Made by a program: the position numbers and the translations under genes. 43,544 bases of DNA, from positions 1-43,544 of IMG/VR virus record IMGVR_UViG_3300033406_000015. One strand, written 5' to 3'. Numbering within the stretch: position 1 is the first letter of the stretch; each line of letters starts with the position of its first letter. The notes below the pieces were generated by a model. The model did no database searches. It was given only the letters and a program-made list of their open reading frames with translations, and had not been told where the DNA came from. Positions 285-43,436 of the stretch are shown piece by piece. Source of the DNA: a virus (Duplodnaviria > Caudoviricetes).

Positions 285-1487
285 ATGCCCCTCTCAGATG
301 TAGTCATCCGTAAGGCCCAAGCTGCGGAGAAGACGATTCGCCTGCACGACGAAAAGGGGCTGTACATGGAAATCTCCCCAAGCGGGGGGAAGTGGTGGCG
401 GTTTAAATATCGCTTTGACGGCAAGGACAAGCGGATCTCCCTTGGGACCTACCCAGAGGTGGGGCTGAAGGAGGCGCGGGAGAAGCGGGACAAGGCCCGG
501 GAGAAGGTGCGCAACGGGATAGACCCCTCTGCTGTCCGCAAGGCGGCGAAGGCAGCCAAGGCAGAGGAAGACTCCTTCGAGACGGTGGCCAGGGAATGGC
601 ACACGAAGCATGGGTCTGCGTGGGCATCCGAGAAGTACCGGGAGGTCACCCTTCGCAGGCTGGAGCTCAACGTCTTCCCTTGGCTGGGCAAGCGTCCGGT
701 CGCGGATATCACCGCCAAGGAACTCCTCGAAGTTCTCAAGCGGGTGGAGGATCGCGGAGCCATCGACACCGCCCACCGGATCCACACCATCTGCGGCCAG
801 GTGCTGCGCTATGCCGTTTCGACAGGCCGGGCGAAGCATGACCCATCCAGGGACATATCAGGCGCGTTGACCCCGCGCCAGCCCACTCATTTTGCAGCCA
901 CCACAGAGCCCAAGCGACTAGCTGAGATCCTCCGGGCGTTGGACGGCTACCCCGGAACGCTTGTGGTCCAGTCAGCCATGAAGCTGGCCCCGCTCCTCTT
1001 TGTCAGGCCGGGGGAACTCCGACACGCCGAATGGAAAGACATCGATCTAGAGAAGGGCGAGTGGCGGTTTCTGGTCACCAAGACCCAGACCCAACACGTC
1101 GTCCCACTCTGTATGCAGGCGGTGGCCATCCTGAAGACGCTCCAGCCACTGACGAACAAAAGTGCCTACGTCTTTCCGTGTGCGAGGAGCATCAAGCGCC
1201 CCATGTCTGATGTGGCGGTACTGGCGGCAATGCGGCGCTCTGATATCGGGAAGGACGAGATGACCGGCCACGGGTTCCGCGCCGTGGCCAGGACCATCCT
1301 CGATGAGGAACTTGGGTTCCGGCCAGACTTCATTGAGCACCAGCTGGCCCACGCCGTGAAAGACCCCAACGGACGGGCGTACAACAGAACGGCGCACCTG
1401 GAGGAGCGCCGCAAGATGATGCAAGCATGGGCAGACTACCTGGACAAGCTCAAGCAGCTGAAGCCCGTGCAGCCTCGAGACGAGTGA
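285..1487 (+). CDS. int: tyrosine integrase, P4-like family with arm-DNA-binding domain
   Basis: N-terminal GLYMEISPSGGKWWRFKYR...SLGTYP; catalytic VRPGEL, HGFR, LAH, AYNR; adjacent to tRNA. Confidence 0.96.
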   Translation: MPLSDVVIRKAQAAEKTIRLHDEKGLYMEISPSGGKWWRFKYRFDGKDKRISLGTYPEVGLKEAREKRDKAREKVRNGIDPSAVRKAAKAAKAEEDSFETVAREWHTKHGSAWASEKYREVTLRRLELNVFPWLGKRPVADITAKELLEVLKRVEDRGAIDTAHRIHTICGQVLRYAVSTGRAKHDPSRDISGALTPRQPTHFAATTEPKRLAEILRALDGYPGTLVVQSAMKLAPLLFVRPGELRHAEWKDIDLEKGEWRFLVTKTQTQHVVPLCMQAVAILKTLQPLTNKSAYVFPCARSIKRPMSDVAVLAAMRRSDIGKDEMTGHGFRAVARTILDEELGFRPDFIEHQLAHAVKDPNGRAYNRTAHLEERRKMMQAWADYLDKLKQLKPVQPRDE

Positions 1488-1692
1488 CGAGCGCCACGAT
1501 TTCGGGCTCGGTCTTCCCGGCGATCCGGGCGGCATTGATCGCCTCAACCTCGTATTCAGGCCAGCCAACAGCATGGCCGCCCAGGGGGACAGGCTTGGTG
1601 AAGAGCCCCGCCTCGATGTCCTCATAGTGGCTGGTCTTGCTTCGGCCCCTGGCCTTCAGGACATCGGGGAGGCGAAGGATGGCGTATTTCAT
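1450..1692 (-). CDS. AlpA-family excisionase/regulator
   Basis: ILRLPDV...SKTSHYEDIEAGLFTKPVPLGGHAVGWPEYEV; start reassigned to ATG 1692 with GGAG SD; converges on int. Confidence 0.88.
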   Translation of the reverse strand: MKYAILRLPDVLKARGRSKTSHYEDIEAGLFTKPVPLGGHAVGWPEYEVEAINAARIAGKTEPEIVALVTRLEAARASAA

Positions 1693-1798
1693 ATCTTCTC
1701 CATGGCGGGTAGCTTTTGCCTTCCGCAGAATTTGTGGAAATGGTGGATGGGTCATGCCACTTCGTAGTCGAGGTTGAAGGTTGAGGCGTGTGCCATGG

Positions 1799-1972
1799 TT
1801 AGGACTCCTCGTAGTAGATGAAGTTCCGGCATTGGCCGTTGGTGATGATGGGGGAGAAGTCCGCGTGAGGTATCGCGTCTCCCTCCCCCTTGTCCATGTG
1901 CCTGGCGCAGACTTCCTTTTGGTGGCAGTCGGAGGCCTCGCACCGGCACACATCGCTAGGGAGCTGGCTCAT
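1799..1972 (-). CDS. small Cys-rich phage protein
   Basis: MSQLPSDVCRCEASDCHQKEVCARH...C; start at 1972 after G-rich SD. Confidence 0.65.
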   Translation of the reverse strand: MSQLPSDVCRCEASDCHQKEVCARHMDKGEGDAIPHADFSPIITNGQCRNFIYYEES

Positions 1973-2195
1973 TCCCCACCCCCTCCCGGCCCAGGGCGGC
2001 GCGAGCCACTCTAACGCAAGCCCATCTCTCAGCCGATTTAGCGTCTCCATTCATGTCTACCGCGTGCTGACGGTTGAGTTCGATGATCTTCTCCAGCGCC
2101 TCGCGGAAGCGGTCACGATCTCGGTGGACGCATGCAGGGCATTCGAGTCCTTCAGGCAGGTAGGCCCTATGTTCCTTGCAGTAGTTGGTCTTCAT
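1956..2195 (-). CDS. small early protein (Cys motif plus REALE...ARAAL helix)
   Basis: Coupled ORF in the leftward operon; CKEH...CPAC; ends ARAALGREG. Confidence 0.7.
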   Translation of the reverse strand: MKTNYCKEHRAYLPEGLECPACVHRDRDRFREALEKIIELNRQHAVDMNGDAKSAERWACVRVARAALGREGVGNEPAP

Positions 2196-2437
2196 TTCGT
2201 CTCCCTCCCCAGGGCTTCGCGAGCAATGTTGCCCATGTCTGGGTGGTGGCGCTTCACCCGGCGGCAGTCGTCGGGGTCGCTGTGGGGGATGCCGAACCGG
2301 TCGTAGTTATCCCGGATGGCGTAGAACTCCAGCGCCTTATAGAGTCGCTCTGCCAGCGCGTAGAAATCGGGGTCAGTCAGTGATTCGCAGGCATCGGCCT
2401 GGAAGCCGATGGACTCTAGGTAATCGGTAAAGCTCAT
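2192..2437 (-). CDS. small early protein
   Basis: ATGA-coupled; LYKALEFYA...AREALGRETK. Confidence 0.72.
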   Translation of the reverse strand: MSFTDYLESIGFQADACESLTDPDFYALAERLYKALEFYAIRDNYDRFGIPHSDPDDCRRVKRHHPDMGNIAREALGRETK

Positions 2438-2649
2438 TTCTCCCTCCCCAGGGCTTCACACTTGCAGGCCCCCAAGGTGATTGACCACGATCCCCACCTG
2501 GGGCTGACGGTGCAGCCGTGGTAGAGCCATTCGCCCAGGATGCGCCCCTTGTCTGGCTGGGGAGTCCTATCGATATCCATGGCTCCCACCACCTCTCCAC
2601 AACGGCACGTTGCGACAAAACCGCTTGGCGCTTCTCGTTTCTTCATCAC
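2434..2649 (-). CDS. small Cys-containing early protein
   Basis: Coupled ORF; CRCG...CKC; ends EALGREK. Confidence 0.68.
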   Translation of the reverse strand: MMKKREAPSGFVATCRCGEVVGAMDIDRTPQPDKGRILGEWLYHGCTVSPRWGSWSITLGACKCEALGREK

Positions 2650-2819
2650 GACCTCCCCAGGGCTTCGCGGAGATAGATGGGCTTCCCGCAGTAAGGGCAG
2701 AACTGGAACCCGTTCTTGCGAACGCCATATCCGTTATCGATTTCGAAGGCGTGGCCGCATTCGGTGTCGTAGACATCAGCTTCGCCACGCATGCGTTCCC
2801 ACTGACAGTTGTCACTCAT
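2646..2819 (-). CDS. 57-aa zinc-ribbon early protein (not in ORF track)
   Basis: Read by hand: MSDNCQWERMRGEADVYDTECGHAFEIDNGYGVRKNGFQFCPYCGKPIYLREALGRS*; fills the gap exactly. Confidence 0.75.
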   Translation of the reverse strand: MSDNCQWERMRGEADVYDTECGHAFEIDNGYGVRKNGFQFCPYCGKPIYLREALGRS

Positions 2820-2822
2820 GCA

Positions 2823-3017
2823 TCACCCCTCAAACTCAGGGAGGGCCTCAAACTCCTCCGCTGTCATCTCGACATCCTCGACAGTAAAGAGGTCCAGATC
2901 GCCCGGTTCCACGTAGTCTCCGATGTAGTTTTCAGCCACGCCCTCTCTGGTCTCCCCCGGCTCGGTAATGAGGTATCCGCTCATCTTGGGGTGAGTGAAT
3001 TTGAGGAATTTAGGCAT
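2823..3017 (-). CDS. small acidic early protein
   Basis: MPKFLKF...EMTAEEFEALPEFEG; start 3017 after G-rich SD. Confidence 0.7.
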   Translation of the reverse strand: MPKFLKFTHPKMSGYLITEPGETREGVAENYIGDYVEPGDLDLFTVEDVEMTAEEFEALPEFEG

Positions 3018-3201
3018 GGCTTCCCCCTTCCAGGGCTTCGCGGAGCCCAGACCACCCGCACTTGAGACACCCAGCCTTGGCGTCATTGTCGTGGGCCTTC
3101 ACGCTGTGGCAGTAGTGGTCCCCGGTGTTGGCCATGAACATCTGTTCTGCTGTCACCGTAACGTCTTCGCTTCCGCATTGAGGGCATCGCAGGTTGTTCA
3201 T
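3010..3201 (-). CDS. zinc-finger early protein
   Basis: CPQCG...CLKCGW; ends GLREALEGGSHA. Confidence 0.72.
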   Translation of the reverse strand: MNNLRCPQCGSEDVTVTAEQMFMANTGDHYCHSVKAHDNDAKAGCLKCGWSGLREALEGGSHA

Positions 3202-3509
3202 TTCGTCTCCCTCCCCAGTGCGGCATACGCGATCAACCGCGCACCATCACCGTCCATCATGTCGGCATCGCCCAGGTCTGCGATTTCTTCCAGCGCCTCA
3301 TGGTAGCGGTCACACTGGGCTTCTAGCCGGGCGTGGTCGTCCGCGACAATATGTGCTGCGGTTGGTGCTTGGATATCGTCACGCCCTGGTGATTCCAATG
3401 GGCCCCGTTTCGTAAGCGTCGGCGTGGGTGGGATTCTGTATCGCCGGGTTGGGTCCTGGTAGCACATGGCCACGGCCTCCCGGATGAGGTCTTGCGGGAG
3501 TCTGGTCAT
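3198..3509 (-). CDS. small early protein
   Basis: Start MTRLPQ at 3509 (ATGA overlap); DRYHEALEEIAD...AYAALGRETK. Confidence 0.68.
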   Translation of the reverse strand: MTRLPQDLIREAVAMCYQDPTRRYRIPPTPTLTKRGPLESPGRDDIQAPTAAHIVADDHARLEAQCDRYHEALEEIADLGDADMMDGDGARLIAYAALGRETK

Positions 3510-3691
3510 TTTGTCTTCCCCCCTTCCATGGCTTCTCGGATTTGGCCCTTGATCCATTCCGATTGCTTCTCCAGATCGGCAATCTGTATGTCCAGGTTTC
3601 CGCGAGCCTCCCGGATGGCGTAGAGGCTCTTGGCCATCATGTCGAGGATCAGGCGGTATTCCATGACTGTGAGGTTCGGTTTGCTCATCAC
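3506..3691 (-). CDS. small coiled-coil early protein
   Basis: Coupled ORF; heptad pattern; ends IREAMEGGKTK. Confidence 0.68.
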   Translation of the reverse strand: MMSKPNLTVMEYRLILDMMAKSLYAIREARGNLDIQIADLEKQSEWIKGQIREAMEGGKTK

Positions 3692-4089
3692 TTCCCCCCT
3701 TCCAGGGCTTCGCCAGCGATGAATGGGTCGCCGTATTCGTCATAGGACACGCCGCGCTTCTGGCTGTTCGGGTCGAAGGTGTCATCGGGGAAAACCTTCA
3801 GGCTGCGGTGCATCGCATCCAGACATTCGGGGTGCATGTGATCGGCCTGGAAGGAGCCATCGATAACGTAGGCGCGATAGGCGGCAGGCTGGCCCATGTC
3901 GATAGGTTCAGGACACCATGAGCAGTCGTGGGTCTTGCGGGTGGCCTTGATGGGCGTCTCGCGGTAGAAGCTCATCACGACCTCCCCAATGATGTGTCGG
4001 TCGTCACGTTCGGGCGTCCAACCCTCCTGCTCGGTCTGGTGCTGGCGCTCGGAAAGCACATCCCGGGCGGCTTGTGTAAGGTTATTCAT
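3688..4089 (-). CDS. chimeric early ORF: truncated AARDVLxER-type domain fused to a Cys/His zinc-finger protein with its own start at 3975
   Basis: N-part AARDVLSERQHQTEQEGWTPERDDRH; internal GGGGAGG SD plus ATG; C-part RKTHDCSWC...HPEC; ends EALEGGK. Confidence 0.68.
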   Translation of the reverse strand: MNNLTQAARDVLSERQHQTEQEGWTPERDDRHIIGEVVMSFYRETPIKATRKTHDCSWCPEPIDMGQPAAYRAYVIDGSFQADHMHPECLDAMHRSLKVFPDDTFDPNSQKRGVSYDEYGDPFIAGEALEGGK

Positions 4090-5074
4090 GCTTCCCTCCT
4101 TCCAGGGCTTCGCGGAGCCCGCATGTGCAGCGGCTATCCGCCTTCATAGACCGACATGACGGCTTATGCGCGTAGATCAGCCAGCCCATCAACCTCTCCC
4201 TCTCCTTCTCGGCTCCCTCCTGGCGGGCGGCGGCGATACTGCGAGACTCCTGCTCAATTCGCCCACGCTCATGTAGGAGGGTTACAAATGCCTCGTCTTG
4301 CCCGATGAGTTCCACCAATTCGTCGAAACAAGTTGGTATCAATCCGCACTTGGTTGCCATATGCGCGATGCGTGGGCCTTGCTTCAGAATCTTGGTGTAG
4401 TTGTCTTCCACCTTGTCCAACGCCTTCCCCAGATCTTCGCACTGCCGGAGTAATGCGTCCCGTTCGGCAATGGCGGCGTATCGATCTGAACGAATGGACT
4501 CGATGGCGCGGGTTGTGAGTTCGGGCCAGTAGTTCCCGTTGAGGCCAAGCTCTACACTGATCCGACCAAGGTAATCCTTGCAAGATTTCAGTTCCGCCTT
4601 GAGCTTGACGGCGATGGTGCGTAGCTGGGTATTCTGCTCTTCCAGGGCTTGGACATAGGCCTGGAACTCATGGGTGTGACGCCCGATCCCAATGGATTTG
4701 GGCATCGTCGGCAGCTCCCCCTCTGCGGCCTCGTAGGCGGCTAGACGGGCGTGAAGGACTCCATTCGCGTCCTCGGAGGTCTGGAGCCTATCGACTAGCC
4801 TTTCAATCTCGGCCCCCTCCGCCTTCAATACTCCCTCCAACCTCTTCACCCTGGCTTCGGCCTGTTCCAGCTTGTCGCGGAGGTTGACCATTTCGAGGTT
4901 GTCCTCGTTATGGTCCGGCGCGGTGCGCTCAAGCAGAAACGTCTTGGCCGTTTCGCAGGGCCAAGGGACGCCGCACACCACGCAAAACCCGGCGATCTTT
5001 CCGTGTTCCGGGTCGTGCTCTTCGTTGCAGCATGCGCGATGCGCCAAGGCTGCAGCCAGTTCAATTGTGCTCAT
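4082..5074 (-). CDS. mosaic coiled-coil early protein
   Basis: Start MSTIEL at 5074; N-terminal Cys cluster, long heptad segments; ends HKPSC...CTCGLREALEGGKHE. Confidence 0.72.
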   Translation of the reverse strand: MSTIELAAALAHRACCNEEHDPEHGKIAGFCVVCGVPWPCETAKTFLLERTAPDHNEDNLEMVNLRDKLEQAEARVKRLEGVLKAEGAEIERLVDRLQTSEDANGVLHARLAAYEAAEGELPTMPKSIGIGRHTHEFQAYVQALEEQNTQLRTIAVKLKAELKSCKDYLGRISVELGLNGNYWPELTTRAIESIRSDRYAAIAERDALLRQCEDLGKALDKVEDNYTKILKQGPRIAHMATKCGLIPTCFDELVELIGQDEAFVTLLHERGRIEQESRSIAAARQEGAEKERERLMGWLIYAHKPSCRSMKADSRCTCGLREALEGGKHE

Positions 5075-5250
5075 GCTGCGCTCCATTCCCCCCACCGCAC
5101 GATGTCGGAGGGGCTGATGTTGGATTTGTGGTAGTGGCGGGCCCACACCCATCCCCCACGCGGCATGCGGCGGCGGTAGATGATGAGGCGGGCCCCGTCT
5201 GTCCGGATCCCAACCACGCGGGTCCCGAACGGTGGGAGGGTGGGCTTCAC
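5071..5250 (-). CDS. 59-aa hypothetical protein (not in ORF track)
   Basis: GTG start, MKPTLPPFGTRVVGIRTDG...WGEWSAA*; 4-nt overlaps at both ends. Confidence 0.55.
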   Translation of the reverse strand: MKPTLPPFGTRVVGIRTDGARLIIYRRRMPRGGWVWARHYHKSNISPSDIVRWGEWSAA

Positions 5251-5480
5251 AGCGCCTCCTCCAGCAACCTCACCGCTGTCCCGATGGCGTGGAACAACTC
5301 ATTCCGAAGATGGTTCCGGGTCTTCGCGGTGGGGTCCATCCGGTGCTTCTCGATGGCCTGGAGGGCTTCCCCCATCTCCTGCACGGCCCCGCTGCGGCGG
5401 TCATCCAGGGATGTTGATGGGTACTTGACGATGGAGTGGGCGATGGTGCTCTGGATGTCTGCGATGGTGGAGGGCTTCAC
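5247..5480 (-). CDS. MazG-like all-alpha nucleotide pyrophosphohydrolase-family protein
   Basis: QEMGEALQAI...HLRNELFHAIGTAVRLLE pattern; GTG start with GGAGG SD. Confidence 0.5.
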   Translation of the reverse strand: MKPSTIADIQSTIAHSIVKYPSTSLDDRRSGAVQEMGEALQAIEKHRMDPTAKTRNHLRNELFHAIGTAVRLLEEAL

Positions 5481-5641
5481 GCGGCCTCCCTGATTCCGCT
5501 CACACGGGGATGCTGCAACCCCTCGGCCAATGCCGCAGCGATGGCCCCGCGTCCCGCCTTCTGGGGGTTCTCGGCGTGGATCTCCATCTCTTGGTCGGGC
5601 TGGTTGGGGTGGCTGATGGTGATGTAGAAGACGCGCTTCAT
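5477..5641 (-). CDS. 54-aa hypothetical protein (not in ORF track)
   Basis: MKRVFYITISHPNQPDQEMEIHAENPQKAG...REAA*; coupled at both ends; IxAExPxKA motif shared with 6083-6265. Confidence 0.6.
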   Translation of the reverse strand: MKRVFYITISHPNQPDQEMEIHAENPQKAGRGAIAAALAEGLQHPRVSGIREAA

Positions 5642-5844
5642 GATGCCTCCGCATATTCGAGGGGCAGGGGCACATCTGATCCGTAGACCTCCCGCATCGC
5701 ACTCTCGTACGCTTGGAGGGCGGCTTCATCCTCCGGTTCCCAGAAGGGCGTCTCGCCCACCTCTGACAGGCTGCGGGAATACCCCTTAAACGCCCTCATC
5801 CGCTTCGCCATCTTGGCGGCGGCGTCCTTGATTGGGTCCGACAT
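5638..5844 (-). CDS. small hypothetical protein
   Basis: GGAG SD; coupled to the downstream gene. Confidence 0.6.
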   Translation of the reverse strand: MSDPIKDAAAKMAKRMRAFKGYSRSLSEVGETPFWEPEDEAALQAYESAMREVYGSDVPLPLEYAEAS

Positions 5845-5847
5845 GTC

Positions 5848-5916
5848 TTACTCCGTCTCTGAGTAATGGGCCTCCAGCACCAGCCAGAAGCCCAGGATTG
5901 CGATGAGGGCGAGCAC
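5848..5916 (-). CDS. putative 22-aa hydrophobic peptide
   Basis: GGAGG SD, GTG start, MLALIAILGFWLVLEAHYSETE*. Confidence 0.35.
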   Translation of the reverse strand: MLALIAILGFWLVLEAHYSETE

Positions 5917-6082
5917 TCGCGCCTCCAGATAGAGCCCCGCCGCAGGGAGCACCCCGCAAGGTGCGCCATGTGATTTCCGCCCTTTTCCATCAGCTCCACG
6001 TCCCAGCAGGAGGTTTCCATCTGCCTTGGTTGTGGGTTGAGAACGGCCCCTGTTGCAGGCACGGCGGGGTGATTGGTTGGGT

Positions 6083-6265
6083 TTAGGCTGCGATCTGAAT
6101 AGCCACCACCTTGCGGATGCGCATCATCCCGCAGCCCACAGCGAGGGCAGAGGCGGTGGCCTTCGCCTTGGCAGGGCTCTCGGCGGTGATGTCGCAGCCG
6201 TAGACGGTGGGCCACCAGGCGGTGTCCTTCTTGTCCGGGTGGACAGTGCAGTGGTAGGTCTTCAT
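6083..6265 (-). CDS. small hypothetical protein
   Basis: AGGAG SD immediately after the annealase stop. Confidence 0.6.
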   Translation of the reverse strand: MKTYHCTVHPDKKDTAWWPTVYGCDITAESPAKAKATASALAVGCGMMRIRKVVAIQIAA

Positions 6266-6275
6266 GGGTGGGCTC

Positions 6276-7013
6276 CTATGCGGTCTTCTTGAGCGCGGCG
6301 GCTTCGAGCTTTACGACGAATGCGGCCAGGGCGGTCAGCACCTTCTCGGCGGGGTCATTGGCCTTGTTGGCGGTCCACTTCTTGGCGAAGTCATCGTATT
6401 TGTCCAGCTGCCCAGCCTGCTTGAATGCCTGGTAGGCCCGGTCCAGCGAGAGGACGAATTCATCCTGTGCATCCAGGTCCCAGCCGTTGGTGTTGGACTC
6501 CTGCTCCTGGGTCCTCGCTTCCGGCGCGGCTCCCTTCGGCTCATCGCTCTCCGGATGGAGGTCGCCCTTGTGCCACAGGTCCAGAGCGGCACCAAAGCGC
6601 ATGGCGGCGTTGCGGAGGGCGTCACCGATGCGCTCCTTGGTGGCACTGGGTCCGGTCTTGCCCTCGGCGTCCCCGTAACCGATGCGGGTCATCCCGCAGA
6701 TGGTCAACTTGATCCACATGCCGCCAAAGGCGTCCAGCCGGGGGAACCCAACCTCATCGAAAACCATGGGTTCCCAGTTCCAGCAGGGGTCGACATCCAG
6801 CAGCCGGTCCGTCAGGGCAGCGTGTCCCACATAATCCAGATGGACCACCTTGGGGTGGTGCCAGGTGCCGCAGAGATCGCAGCGGATGCCCTTCTTGTAG
6901 TCGGCCTTGATCTCGTCCGTCTGGGCCTTGGTCGGCTTGGGGAGCTTGCTGATCTGGTGGGGCTCAAAGGGAGCCCGGAGCTTCTTGAGGGCTTCGATCT
7001 GTTCCTGGTTCAT
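6276..7013 (-). CDS. Rad52/Sak-like single-strand annealing protein
   Basis: LRAPF...LDYVGHAALTDRLLDVDPCWNW...KERIGDALRNAAMRFGAALDLW. Confidence 0.8.
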   Translation of the reverse strand: MNQEQIEALKKLRAPFEPHQISKLPKPTKAQTDEIKADYKKGIRCDLCGTWHHPKVVHLDYVGHAALTDRLLDVDPCWNWEPMVFDEVGFPRLDAFGGMWIKLTICGMTRIGYGDAEGKTGPSATKERIGDALRNAAMRFGAALDLWHKGDLHPESDEPKGAAPEARTQEQESNTNGWDLDAQDEFVLSLDRAYQAFKQAGQLDKYDDFAKKWTANKANDPAEKVLTALAAFVVKLEAAALKKTA

Positions 7014-7813
7014 CACTTCACCTCGATCTCGGAATAGACTCGGACGCCAGGGATCTCGCACCCTTCCTTAAGGGCTCGGACATCCCGCGCAATGGCGGCT
7101 TCGTCAATGGGCCGGTACTTCAGAGGCACCAGGGCAGGGTCGGTGATCTCGTATTTCCAAGCCGTGAAGGTCTTGGACGCGGAGCCCGTCACCTTGGCGA
7201 CTTCGGGAGCGGCGGGGAGCACCACGCGGGTATCACGGATCGCCTGCTTGGCGGCTTCGGACTGCTCGGCAGCTCGCTGTGCGGCTTCCTCAGACTCCTG
7301 CTCGGCCAGGAGGGCGGCGAATGGATCTTCCTCGGTGGATGCGACCAGCTTCGCGGCTTCGGCCTCTTCCTGGGCCTTCTTGGCGGCGGCGATCTCGGCA
7401 TCAGCCTTGGCCTTCGCTTCGGCCTCCAGGCGCTCCCGTTCCTTCCTGGCCAGGGCCTCAGCTTCGGCCCTCTGCCTGGCGAGCTCAGCCTGGTAGGCGC
7501 TCATGGGGCGGCGGTAGAGCCCCAGGGCTTCCTCAAAGGCGGCATCCACCGGCTTGAACTCGGCATTGATGCGCTTCACAGTGTCGTTGAGGGGCTTCAC
7601 CAGGGAGGTGCGCTTGTTCTCGGCGGCCTTCTGGGCGTTCTTGATGGCGGCGACCATGGCATCAGCGGCGGCGTAATCGTCATCCGTCTTGATCACGACC
7701 GCCTTGGCGAGGCTCAACACCTCCATGGCCTTGGCGAGGTCGGCGCGGGCGTCCTGGGCGTCGATGACTTCACCCTTGAGGGCGGAGGTTCCGAGGGTCT
7801 GGATGTTGTTCAT
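7013..7813 (-). CDS. coiled-coil phage protein of the recombination region
   Basis: KRTSLVKPLND...INAEFKP, Ala/Glu coiled coil, C-terminal WKYEITDPALVP...IPGVRVY. Confidence 0.75.
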   Translation of the reverse strand: MNNIQTLGTSALKGEVIDAQDARADLAKAMEVLSLAKAVVIKTDDDYAAADAMVAAIKNAQKAAENKRTSLVKPLNDTVKRINAEFKPVDAAFEEALGLYRRPMSAYQAELARQRAEAEALARKERERLEAEAKAKADAEIAAAKKAQEEAEAAKLVASTEEDPFAALLAEQESEEAAQRAAEQSEAAKQAIRDTRVVLPAAPEVAKVTGSASKTFTAWKYEITDPALVPLKYRPIDEAAIARDVRALKEGCEIPGVRVYSEIEVK

Positions 7814-8147: not shown

Positions 8148-8384
8148 GCGGTCTTCTCCTTAGGTTGTAGGAGGTCCATGAAATAACTCAGGGCGATGTC
8201 TTGGCTGGGGAATGGGGCAGAGATGCCGGACGATTCGCCGTTGGGGTAGAGGGTCACGCCGCGCCACATGCCGTCAGCGCATCGCCAAACGTGGGCGAGC
8301 TTTCGGCGGTAGGGGCCGACGATCCACCAGCCGATTGGAGCCGGTTCGTATTTGAGGGGGGGGGGCGGACTTAGACTTTTTCAC
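8144..8384 (-). pseudogene. small gene frameshifted at a C10 homopolymer
   Basis: GTG start overlaps the upstream TGA; with C9 it would read MKKSKSAPPLKYEPAPIGWWIVGPY...KEKTA* and couple to the next gene; the sequence has G10 at 8356-8365. Confidence 0.6.
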
Positions 8385-9466
8385 GCGGTAGCCCCATCTT
8401 TCACCGGCACGAACTTGTCGCCGGAAAGTCGGTAAGCAACGCCAGCCAGGACCCCATCTTCTCCCACCTCGGCCATGCGGATGCGCCACTGTTCGCGCTT
8501 CTCATCCCAATACTGGCAAATCAGGGTGGAGCCATAGCCGCCGGTCAGGGTGGAGTCATAGCCGCCGGTCAGGGTGGAGCCATCGCCGCCGGTCAGGGTG
8601 GAGTCATAGCCGCCGGTCAGGGTGGAGCGATTGCCGCCGGTCAGGGTGGAGCGATTGCCGCCGGTCAGGGTGGAGCGATTGCCGCCGGTCAGGGTGGAGT
8701 CATCGCCGCCGGTCAGGGTGGAGCCATCGCCGCCGGTCAGGGTGGAGCCATCGCCGCCGGTCAGGGTGGAGCCATAGCCGCCGGTCAGGGTGGAGCCATA
8801 GCCGCCGGTCAGGGTGGAGCCATCGCCGCCGGTCAGGGTGGAGTCATCGCCGCCGGTCAGGGTGGAGTCATAGCCGCCGGTCAGGGTGGAGCGATTGCCG
8901 CCGGTCAGGGTGGAGCGATTGCCGCCGGTCAGGGTGGAGTCATCGCCGCCGGTCAGGGTGGAGCCATCGCCGCCGGTCAGGGTGGAGCCATAGCCGCCGG
9001 TCAGGGTGGAGCCATAGCCGCCGGTCAGGGTGGAGCCATCGCCGCCGGTCAGGGTGGAGCCATCGCCGCCGGTCAGGGTGGAGCCGATGCATGTGGCTGG
9101 GTCCGCGCCGAGGGAGATTAGGAGGGCGGCGCAGCTTGCCTTGTCGCCGACATGGACCACATCGGCGCGGGGGGCCTTGATCTTGCCGTCAATATCGACC
9201 CACTCATCGATGCCGACAACCATCCACTTGGCGTCAGGATCCCAACTGAGATAGTTAGCACTGCCAGCTCCCCACAGTAGGCCATGGAGCCCGTTCCCGC
9301 ATTCGGCCTTTGGCTTCCAATCGGGGCACTCGACGGTGCCAAAGGTGGGCCACTGGAAACCCCCGTGGGATGTCATATCCGCATTGCAGGTGCGGAGCAT
9401 GTAGGCCTTGTGGCGGGTTTTGAGTTCTTCGATGGTGGGAGGTTTGACGGTCTTTTTGCGGGGCAT
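8381..9466 (-). CDS. ice-nucleation-protein (InaZ)-like beta-solenoid repeat protein, short form
   Basis: N-domain LRTC..DM..HGG..WP..G.V...NGLHGLLWGAG...PRADVVHVGD; 23 GGxxSTLT/I octapeptides; C-cap LICQYWDEKR...VGEDGV.A...Y; AGGAGG SD. Confidence 0.8.
   Translation of the reverse strand: MPRKKTVKPPTIEELKTRHKAYMLRTCNADMTSHGGFQWPTFGTVECPDWKPKAECGNGLHGLLWGAGSANYLSWDPDAKWMVVGIDEWVDIDGKIKAPRADVVHVGDKASCAALLISLGADPATCIGSTLTGGDGSTLTGGDGSTLTGGYGSTLTGGYGSTLTGGDGSTLTGGDDSTLTGGNRSTLTGGNRSTLTGGYDSTLTGGDDSTLTGGDGSTLTGGYGSTLTGGYGSTLTGGDGSTLTGGDGSTLTGGDDSTLTGGNRSTLTGGNRSTLTGGNRSTLTGGYDSTLTGGDGSTLTGGYDSTLTGGYGSTLICQYWDEKREQWRIRMAEVGEDGVLAGVAYRLSGDKFVPVKDGATA
8521..9084. repeat. 24-bp tandem repeat, about 23.5 copies, coding
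   Basis: Invariant GCCGCCGGTCAGGGTGGA plus a variable hexamer (GCCATC, GCCATA, GTCATC, GTCATA, GCGATT). Confidence 0.97.
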
Positions 9467-17363: not shown

Positions 17364-17593
17364 GAGTCTCCATGATCGAGCCTGGAGGAGTCTACGCCAG
17401 CAACTGCGGGAACGTCCGTGAAGTGGTCTCCATCGAGGGCGACTCCCTGACCTACCGCGTGGTGAGAACCACCTGCAAGAGCGGCCTCCCGTTCTACTTC
17501 GTGCCCGGCCGCCTGGTGACCGTGGGGCGTGAGGCTTTCGCCCGATGGGCTGACCGAGAGGTTTCAGACACAGAGTTCAGGGGGATCGCATGA
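17360..17593 (+). CDS. hypothetical protein
   Basis: AGGAGG SD; ATGA-coupled on both sides. Confidence 0.65.
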   Translation: MRVSMIEPGGVYASNCGNVREVVSIEGDSLTYRVVRTTCKSGLPFYFVPGRLVTVGREAFARWADREVSDTEFRGIA

Positions 17594-18069
17594 AGCCTTG
17601 GAACTCAACAGATCGGTTCTGGTCAAAGGTCCAGAAGATTGAAGGGGATAAATGCTGGGTTTGGACGGCGTGTAAGGACCCGAATGGTTACGGTAGGTTT
17701 CGGCTCCCAGATGGCCGCACTGCTCTCGCCCACCGCGTCGCATACCTCCTTGAGAAGGGCGAAATCCCTGATGGTATGGAGTTAGACCACAAGTGCAATA
17801 ACCCAACATGTGTTAACCCATCACACCTTAGACCATGCACAAGTCGAGAAAACAAGTGGAACAGGAAGCACGGGAAAGTGAGTTCTTCCGGGCTACGCGG
17901 CGTGACCCGGCATGGCCGAGGTTGGCGCGCAAAGATCTCCATCAATGGCCAACTGGTCTACCTTGGCACCTTCGAAACCAAGGAGGAGGCGCATTCCGCG
18001 TACTGCGAGGCCGCCAACCAAAACTTTGGGGAGTTCGCAAATGTTGACATCAAGGGGTCGGTGGCATGA
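17590..18069 (+). CDS. HNH endonuclease with AP2 DNA-binding domain
   Basis: FWSKV...CWVW...GYG...AHRVAY...LDHKCNNPTCVNPSHL; GVT...WRAKI...YLGTFETKEEA. Confidence 0.9.
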   Translation: MKPWNSTDRFWSKVQKIEGDKCWVWTACKDPNGYGRFRLPDGRTALAHRVAYLLEKGEIPDGMELDHKCNNPTCVNPSHLRPCTSRENKWNRKHGKVSSSGLRGVTRHGRGWRAKISINGQLVYLGTFETKEEAHSAYCEAANQNFGEFANVDIKGSVA

Positions 18070-18467
18070 AGTTATGGAATAGTTCGTTGAACGTCAAGCG
18101 CATCAAGCCCCGCCGAACCGCCCCCCAGACCCCCCAAAAAGGCGAGGGAGCCGCCATCCTCCACCCCGGGCCCTTCCGGTCTCAGACCATCCGAGACCTG
18201 GCGGCCGAAGCTCCCCACTGCATGGAATGCGGGAAGCGGAACGCCGGGGATGTTGTGGCCTGCCATCCCAATTCACTCGAGTACGGGAAGGGCATGGGGC
18301 AGAAGGCGCACGACTGCCCGGCGTATCTGTGTGGGGATTGTCATAACCTCCTCGACGGCAGGGCCGGCGAACTCACCGCCGATGAGAAGGCCGTGATGTT
18401 CCTTCGGGCCGCTTACCGGTCCTGGGTGTGGCTCATGCGAGAAGGGCACTTGAAGGTGGCGGCATGA
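18066..18467 (+). CDS. DUF1364/YbcO-like nuclease-domain protein
   Basis: CMEC...VVACH...GMGQK...LCGDCHNLLDG. Confidence 0.7.
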   Translation: MKLWNSSLNVKRIKPRRTAPQTPQKGEGAAILHPGPFRSQTIRDLAAEAPHCMECGKRNAGDVVACHPNSLEYGKGMGQKAHDCPAYLCGDCHNLLDGRAGELTADEKAVMFLRAAYRSWVWLMREGHLKVAA

Positions 18468-43417: not shown

Positions 43418-43436
43418 GGGTGGGGCCACCAAGAAA
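43418..43436 (+). repeat. attR core (displaced tRNA 3' end)
   Basis: Identical to 109-127. Confidence 0.92.

Follow-up and report, generated by a model that had tools for sequence, protein, structure and literature searches.

A short coding joint repeated along a temperate phage early operon as candidate homology for the exchange of whole genes

An array of genes ending in a shared joint

The stretch of DNA analysed here (hereafter the window) is the whole of IMG/VR virus record IMGVR_UViG_3300033406_000015, a siphovirus-like temperate phage genome of about 43 kb (43,544 bases). A PHROGs scan of 43 of its open reading frames (ORFs) identified head, tail, replication and repressor genes. An array of ten genes on the minus strand, numbered g1 (1956-2195) to g10 (4082-5074), forms the distal end of the leftward early operon, with a gene for a single-strand annealing protein (6276-7013) on one side and xis/int on the other. 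Nine of the ten gene ends in 1956-5074 carry the same short sequence, hereafter called the joint, which is composed of a coding core GAAGCCCTGG, a purine Shine-Dalgarno (SD) tract and a stop/start overlap. The joint spans 15-30 bases and also contains the ribosome site of the next gene.

Two alleles were distinguished, A (core + GGAGGGAG(ACG)AAATGA) and B (core + AAGGGGGGAAG), all copies being on the minus strand. Allele A is found where g2 ends and g1 starts (2191-2221, CGCGAAGCCCTGGGGAGGGAGACGAAATGA), where g3 ends and g2 starts (2434-2457), as a variant at the end of g4 and start of g3 (2643-2672), and as its right half, matching the g2 joint exactly over 22 nt, at the end of g7 and start of g6 (3197-3224). 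Allele B occupies the g6/g5 (3010-3048, GGGCTCCGCGAAGCCCTGGAAGG...), g9/g8 (3685-3714) and g10/g9 (4082-4120) junctions, and a B variant encoding REAMEGG lies at the end of g8 and start of g7 (3506-3538). The copy in g1 (1974-2003, RAALG...) is diverged, and g5 has no DNA joint at its 3' end. An earlier model-generated note on this DNA had described neighbouring genes as ending in a shared motif. This stood for nine of the ten, with the correction that g1 reads on to ...RAALGREGVGNEPAP, overlaps the next gene by 17 nt and is not motif-ended. The positions given in that note were all verified: the core on the plus strand, CAGGGCTTC, starts at 2210, 2449, 2658, 3031, 3703 and 4103, with variants at 1992, 3216 and 3527, and exact repeats of 22 nt (2191/3197) and 23 nt (3026/4098) are present. 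A tenth, partial copy that the note had not listed lies inside g9 (3972-3988, minus strand); it matches 17 nt in the right half of the g4 joint exactly and is read in another frame.

Such repetition is not expected by chance. With at most one mismatch, GAAGCCCTGGRRRGG matched the window seven times, always on the minus strand and within 2204-4111, against 0.17 matches expected, and none of 100 shuffles reached seven. The motif was likewise enriched over a codon-shuffled null, with 12 exact pairs of at least 14 nt in 1700-5900 compared with a mean of 0.10 and a maximum of 2 in 300 shuffles. Ten of these pairs link gene ends, one is the joint copy inside g9 and one is an in-frame match inside g2/g8. 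At the peptide level, A[LM][GE] occurs in the last 15 codons of 9/10 array genes and of 2/42 other window genes.

The products of the array are mostly small. No family was found for g1 (79 aa), g2 (2192-2437, 81 aa) or g7 (3198-3509, 103 aa), and an atlas search with g7 returned unnamed clusters only. A widespread CxC...CxC family includes g3 (2434-2646, 70 aa); g4 (2646-2819, 57 aa) is zinc-ribbon-like, g5 (2823-3017) encodes 64 aa, g6 (3010-3201, 63 aa) has weak zinc-ribbon matches, and g8 (3506-3688, 60 aa) is predicted to be helical, with no firm family. Two phage modules are fused in g9 (3688-4089, 133 aa), and g10 encodes a mosaic coiled-coil protein of 330 aa. Word-index protein searches with g2, g3 and g4 returned only the query's own cluster, tblastn with g4 found nothing among cultured phage records, and blastn of the window against 50,697 such records gave a single short match, to the g9 N-module. 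The suggestion that the cargo is anti-defence found no named match in PHROGs, Pfam or NCBIfam, and PADLOC, which covers defence genes only, gave 0 matches of 11; that role is a guess from gene position. The array genes, whose N-termini the earlier note presented as unrelated, share in-frame matches inside their bodies in two pairs, g1/g7 (2085-2116 and 3282-3313, a 32-nt internal module at 81%) and g2/g8 (2310-2325 and 3609-3624, 16 nt), which suggests domain-level shuffling besides gene-end exchange.

Conservation of the joint at the DNA level

Gene ends were synonymously recoded with the peptide kept, and the mean best-partner identity was scored in 1000 trials. The observed identity was 17.4 nt, compared with 9.9 nt after recoding and 12.9 nt when the SD part was held fixed, and it was reached in 0/1000 trials under either scheme. 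The Glu codon of the joint is GAA in 7/7 cases (early-gene frequency 0.43, p 0.003) and the Leu codon is CTG in 8/8 (background 0.40, p 0.0006), the G of which may also serve the SD; bias in the Arg (5/6) and Ala (8/9) codons is non-significant for each by itself. In five host genomes, GAGGCCCTGG is preferred over GAAGCCCTGG by 1.7-4.4 fold. The residue preceding the joint Glu differs (R, C or G), so that synonymous codons are fixed while residues vary. This comparison, which the earlier note had proposed, points to identity at the DNA level.

Two genes bear traces of how the joint may have arrived. A full-library search with g3 gave 114 representatives, with matches mostly ending at residue 63-65. 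Among 113 aligned homologues, 109 retain the last conserved Cys, directly after which the g3 joint starts, and 0/109 go on with EA[LM]. Because the homologue matches mostly stop before the tail and none continues in this way, the g3 tail appears to have been added to a domain that had no need of it. Glu follows the last Cys in 15 homologues, a possible microhomology for grafting. Upstream of the out-of-frame copy, residues 1-38 of g9 match a module present in nine PHROG families, the match stopping there; in a cultured phage gene this N-module continues for about 65 residues. Downstream of the 17-nt copy, the ORF has a weak match (E 0.008) to the beginning of phrog_7314. We read this copy as a fossil crossover into the SD half, which would have fused the two modules. 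From these sequence comparisons, the joint appears to behave as DNA and not as a peptide tag.

Distribution of the joint in relatives

The closest integrase match among 80 loci kept (25 of 64 parts of the scan covered) was to an uncultured Holophaga (67%), whose genome has a tRNA match to the window at 99%, and genome G074 (Holophagaceae) contains window 1700-7100 at 100%. On account of these three matches, the host is probably a member of the Holophagaceae. The window is a prophage of a soil or sediment bacterium. In 133 genomes of the family, the strict joint pattern was detected only in G074 (3), G075 (2 sites) and G090 (once, outside a phage); the matches in G090 and G125 are attributed to chromosomal chance. 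Scans of viral sequences gave 21 loci, two of which are true relatives, phages G134 and G135. The metagenome scan gave 24 loci, comprising one repeat of G134, two of the window itself (excluded) and 21 single matches without an array, and further pattern scans returned no locus, one locus (G134 again) and six single allele A matches with no array. A g10 profile search of 157 genomes of the class recovered G074 and G075 only, and tblastn with g1-g10 against five phage or prophage stretches found relatives only for g4 (in G134) and g10 (in G075 and G135).

Three other phages have the joint in identical letters, with different genes around it, and blastn among the window, G134 and G075 gave matches of 22-34 bp (88-100%) located at gene ends. 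The replication and head modules of G134 differ from those of the window. Its copy of g4 is 96% identical along 164 bp that begin at the start codon and run to the core, inside which the identity stops; allele B and then another gene lie beyond, and ahead of g4 a further joint ends a different gene. Outside g4, all five early-region blastn matches between the two phages are joint copies. Among these comparisons, window 3685-3714 is matched 30/30 in G134, where the genes on both sides differ. Within G134, a gene that ends YGEALEGGK resembles a paralogue up to about 45 nt before the end, and the paralogue has another tail.

In G075, a g10 relative ends in CTCGLREALEGGNHE; next come two further genes, with the ends ASEALEGGTK and RRALGGEK, and after them two genes with a different shared 17-nt end. 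G135 is the closest relative: g12-g14 are common to it and the window at 84%, other genes follow, and one of these is a g10 relative ending VREALEGEEKP. The joint at 4082-4120 thus also terminates the g10 relatives of G075 and G135. Since all three g10 relatives end in REALEG, the g10 family is the likely source of this end and of the joint.

Other shared junctions were also seen. In the window, the g13/g12 and g12/g11 junctions (5247-5250 and 5477-5480, minus strand) are both GTGAAGCCC, a second small shared junction containing GAAGCCC; AGGAGGCCCAGCCATGA occurs twice in G075 (L174 11097-11360, minus strand) and GAGGAGAAGCCGTGA twice in G135 (L230 4220-4480). Two tyrosine integrase-family genes are present both in G134 (L231 159-1304 and 14911-15921) and in the G075 prophage (L174 8038-9126 and L175 2480-3751), the second in each case directly after the accessory array.

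Gene-end identity in unrelated loci

Gene ends called with a crude gene caller were scored in 154 locus-strand sets from eight annealing-protein and 73 integrase loci, and the 37 sets with at least ten coupled small genes were kept, the remainder being dropped. The annealing-protein (9) and integrase (80 and 73) loci are distant, carry no joint array and were used as controls. The window scored highest (17.4) of the 43 locus sets compared for gene-end identity, followed by G075 (13.1) and G134 (12.9); G135 scored 9.0 and the 37 unrelated sets at most 9.7. Peptide ends of the R.AL type are frequent in early genes of unrelated phages without DNA identity (7/21 coupled genes in L006). Because some control loci have such ends without the DNA identity, the peptide ending is a general phage background, and it is the DNA homogenisation that sets this group apart. 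Early-gene ends of the form R.AL...G(E/K)-stop were observed in unrelated phages at L006 12800-18200 and L005 13900-15200.

Proposed mechanism and alternative explanations

We consider it fairly probable that the joint provides homology for general recombination that exchanges whole genes between co-resident phages while translational coupling is kept. Recombination would probably be carried out by the phage Sak/Rad52-type annealing protein or by host RecA. The earlier note had called the array recombinase-free, a description contradicted by this candidate recombinase gene, located 1.2 kb upstream of the array (6276-7013, minus strand; phrog_3290, E 1.9e-54). Its product also matches Sak/Rad52 clusters by features and predicted structure, and a sequence search for a solved-structure relative found none. 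The neighbouring gene (7013-7813, minus strand) matches phrog_10477, annotated as an exonuclease, and G135 has an Erf and exonuclease pair in place of the Sak/Rad52-type gene. Rad52-like phage recombinases are described as able to use homology that is short and diverged, the minimal segment (MEPS) being 23-27 bp for Red-beta versus 31-34 for RecA (as reported in PMC3945230), and RecET is described as joining 5-13 bp at low rate (PMC2327257). The joint identities, 14-30 nt, straddle the threshold of 23-27 bp.

The joint would have begun as the native 3' end of a g10-like family and of a common phage R.AL terminal helix. Rare microhomology crossovers would then graft it onto unrelated gene bodies, replacing dispensable tails, and each graft would create a new substrate of 15-30 bp, so that the joint would spread and homogenise itself. 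In-frame crossovers within it would preserve the stop, SD and start and hence give viable recombinants. The cycle would be one of microhomology graft followed by homology exchange, with selection retaining in-frame, coupled products. A broader version, which we regard as doubtful, is that temperate phages of the Holophagaceae share a self-propagating, selfish-like coding joint of 15-30 bp that grafts itself to whatever gene is captured, at its 3' end, and makes exchangeable, coupled cassettes across unrelated phage types, perhaps with crossovers focused by a GCGAAGC mini-hairpin; the R.AL-GG-stop ends widespread among early genes of temperate phages would then be decayed joints.

Several observations weigh against exchange at the joint. 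Only three joint-bearing relatives were found, none of them forming with another a close phage pair that differs by one gene between two joints, and two other Holophagaceae prophages, G070 and G115, lack the joint. Since a DNA pattern served to detect G134 and G135, codon identity in these two is biased and non-independent. No annealing protein was detected in G134 and G075 among the 44 ORFs scanned of 98 listed (at least 140 aa), and many pairwise joint identities, at 14-19 nt, are below the MEPS of 23-27 bp. Breakpoints also occur outside the joint: the homology between the window and G135 (5233-6072) stops at the g12/g11 boundary, where the core is absent, g10 contains internal mosaic patches, and in the window g4 adjoins, at its 5' edge, the joint-less g5. 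The earlier proposal that homologies of about 20 bp let genes be swapped is borne out in part. The motif is conserved as DNA, has different genes on either side in relatives and bounds one common gene, with breakpoints at the 3' edge of g4, the 3685-3714 island and the g10 ends; those at g12/g11, within g10 and at the 5' edge of g4 do not follow it.

The breakpoints outside the joint would also fit a process in which illegitimate or microhomology crossovers fall anywhere and the survivors are those that keep the stop, SD and start, the shared ends being a residue of past captures and not active hot spots. The in-frame 16-nt g2/g8 match and the g9 fusion, as recombination elsewhere, agree with this, as do the R.AL ends common in unrelated early genes without DNA identity and the description in PMC3029335 of boundary sequences as missing at most mosaic boundaries. 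We nevertheless judge it unlikely: identities of 30/30 and 28/28 between phages with different flanking genes and different head and replication modules need recent, repeated exchange at the joint, and the window, with its nine copies in 2.1 kb, is an outlier. We give little credence to a recognised site, in which GCGAAGC, as a nuclease-resistant single-stranded DNA mini-hairpin or a protein-binding site, would fix crossovers beyond homology. This heptamer is present in five window joints and in joints of G134, G075 and G135, the GC before GAA is constant while the residue changes (CGC/GGC/AGC), and GCGAAGC is described as a very stable, exonuclease-resistant mini-hairpin (PMC13037366). It is, however, missing from 4/9 window joints and found at ten more sites elsewhere in the window; CGC GAA GCC are ordinary codons whose identity common descent can explain; and the core, unlike a Chi site, is not over-represented in hosts. 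A Chi-like host site was itself rejected, with 149-198 copies of the core per genome versus 332-871 for the synonymous GAG form (five genomes).

The earlier note had named a shared C-terminal peptide tag as its alternative, which, as a degron or docking helix under selection at the protein level, we find very improbable. In favour of such a tag, no full joint copy departs from the one reading frame, unrelated phages also have R.AL ends, and in g1, g2 and g7 the helix could be the end that a shared module natively has. It is disfavoured by synonymous sites that stay constant though residues vary, by the presence of the tail in 0/109 g3 homologues, by the out-of-frame partial copy in g9, by final residues that differ (K, S, A, E, P) and by paralogues that differ in their tail. 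Least probable of all is an mRNA element tuning translational coupling, with recombination as a by-product. The SD lies within the joint, a short CCCT/AGGG stem is possible in several copies, and the joint resembles the SAS elements described for Cluster K mycobacteriophages (PMC3203893); against this, predicted SD occlusion was not above that of recoded controls (mean z +0.5, 17 junctions), which led us to reject an SD-occluding hairpin, and a structured RNA was rejected as there was no Rfam match. Whole-gene exchange through homology in the joint is the reading that we retain.

Neighbouring features of the prophage

The prophage tyrosine integrase (285-1487, plus strand) is an arm-binding phage integrase (PF13356, PF22022, PF00589; NF007246). 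A 16-nt attachment (att) core lies in the 3' end of a tRNA(CAT) gene (47-122), at 109-124 on the plus strand, with a second copy at 43418-43433. At the end of the early operon, a tiny ORF (1752-1795, minus strand) with the terminal residues STFNLDYEVA matches a DNA methyltransferase gene of G135 at its 3' end (91% identity over 66 nt), and would be the remnant of a lost gene. A 361-aa gene (8381-9466, minus strand; phrog_18079) that is also found in G135 contains about 20 tandem 24-bp repeats (GGxxSTLT), and two neighbouring HNH endonuclease genes (17590-18467, plus strand) lie ahead of the terminase small subunit.

Significance and comparison with known systems

Since the modular theory, it has been an open question whether phage mosaicism arises via dedicated linkers or via random joining followed by selection. 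The array is a compact temperate-phage case, and because the candidate recombinase lies only 1.2 kb off, the joint lengths straddle 23-27 bp and the core can be silently recoded, it makes the linker idea directly testable. The joint also offers a reason for a meaningless-looking terminal motif common to many unrelated small phage proteins. Such a shared terminal motif can mislead family annotation.

Integron arrays consist of tandem single-gene units with a repeated site between them, and this organisation is also seen here. The resemblance, which the earlier note had drawn, goes no further: no integron integrase was found among the 43 ORFs scanned, nor was an attC hairpin or a cassette promoter detected. 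In place of an IntI beside the array, the integrase is of the arm-binding phage type tied to the tRNA att core. The attC sites of integrons are imperfect palindromes of 55-140 bp, whereas the joints are direct repeats of 15-30 nt, with no long inverted repeat at the joints among the 25 longest of 156 listed and no Rfam match.

The PeSL cassettes of the T4-type phages RB49 and phi1 (Arbiol et al. 2010, PMC2839356) are described as repeats between non-essential small genes, with general recombination and gene gain or loss at the repeats, as proposed for the joint. By the same account they are intergenic promoter and terminator stem-loops of lytic myophages, for which mini-circles were shown, whereas the joint is coding, has neither promoter nor terminator and couples translation. 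No promoter-like site was found in 1400-6300, and three terminator-like sites were found, against 4.1 expected, all on the non-coding strand and away from the joints. SAS elements are likewise short repeats in one orientation that include the SD and lie just ahead of non-structural gene starts in temperate phages, and PMC3203893 suggests recombination as a possible role. The joint is, in the same way, a non-palindromic repeat a few bases before non-structural gene starts. SAS elements are described there as dispersed, 13 bp long and read as a translation element, while the repeat here extends into the ORF ahead of it and is found where genes have been swapped between phages; the aligned joints differ from the Cluster K consensus given in that source, GGGATAGGAGCCC.

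The closest precedent concerns short conserved sequences at module boundaries. Linker or boundary sequences of this kind were reportedly part of the modular theory as set out by Susskind and Botstein (1978), Botstein (1980) and Clark et al. (2001). As cited in PMC2839356 and PMC3029335, the proposal is that temperate phages have a short conserved sequence at their gene boundaries, which supplies homology for exchanges that keep placement and expression. A short conserved gene-boundary sequence common to otherwise different phages was what blastn detected among the window, G134 and G075. The difference is that a single operon here has one joint nine times in tandem, and that this joint sits within the coding 3' end, where it takes the place of the C-termini of unrelated proteins. 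We found no report of the joint motif or of a comparable coding joint in the literature searched, subscription papers and supplements being outside its scope. Distinctive here are the temperate phage and its joint, which lies within the coding 3' end and overwrites C-termini, is shared letter for letter across phage types, and has left a putative out-of-frame fossil.

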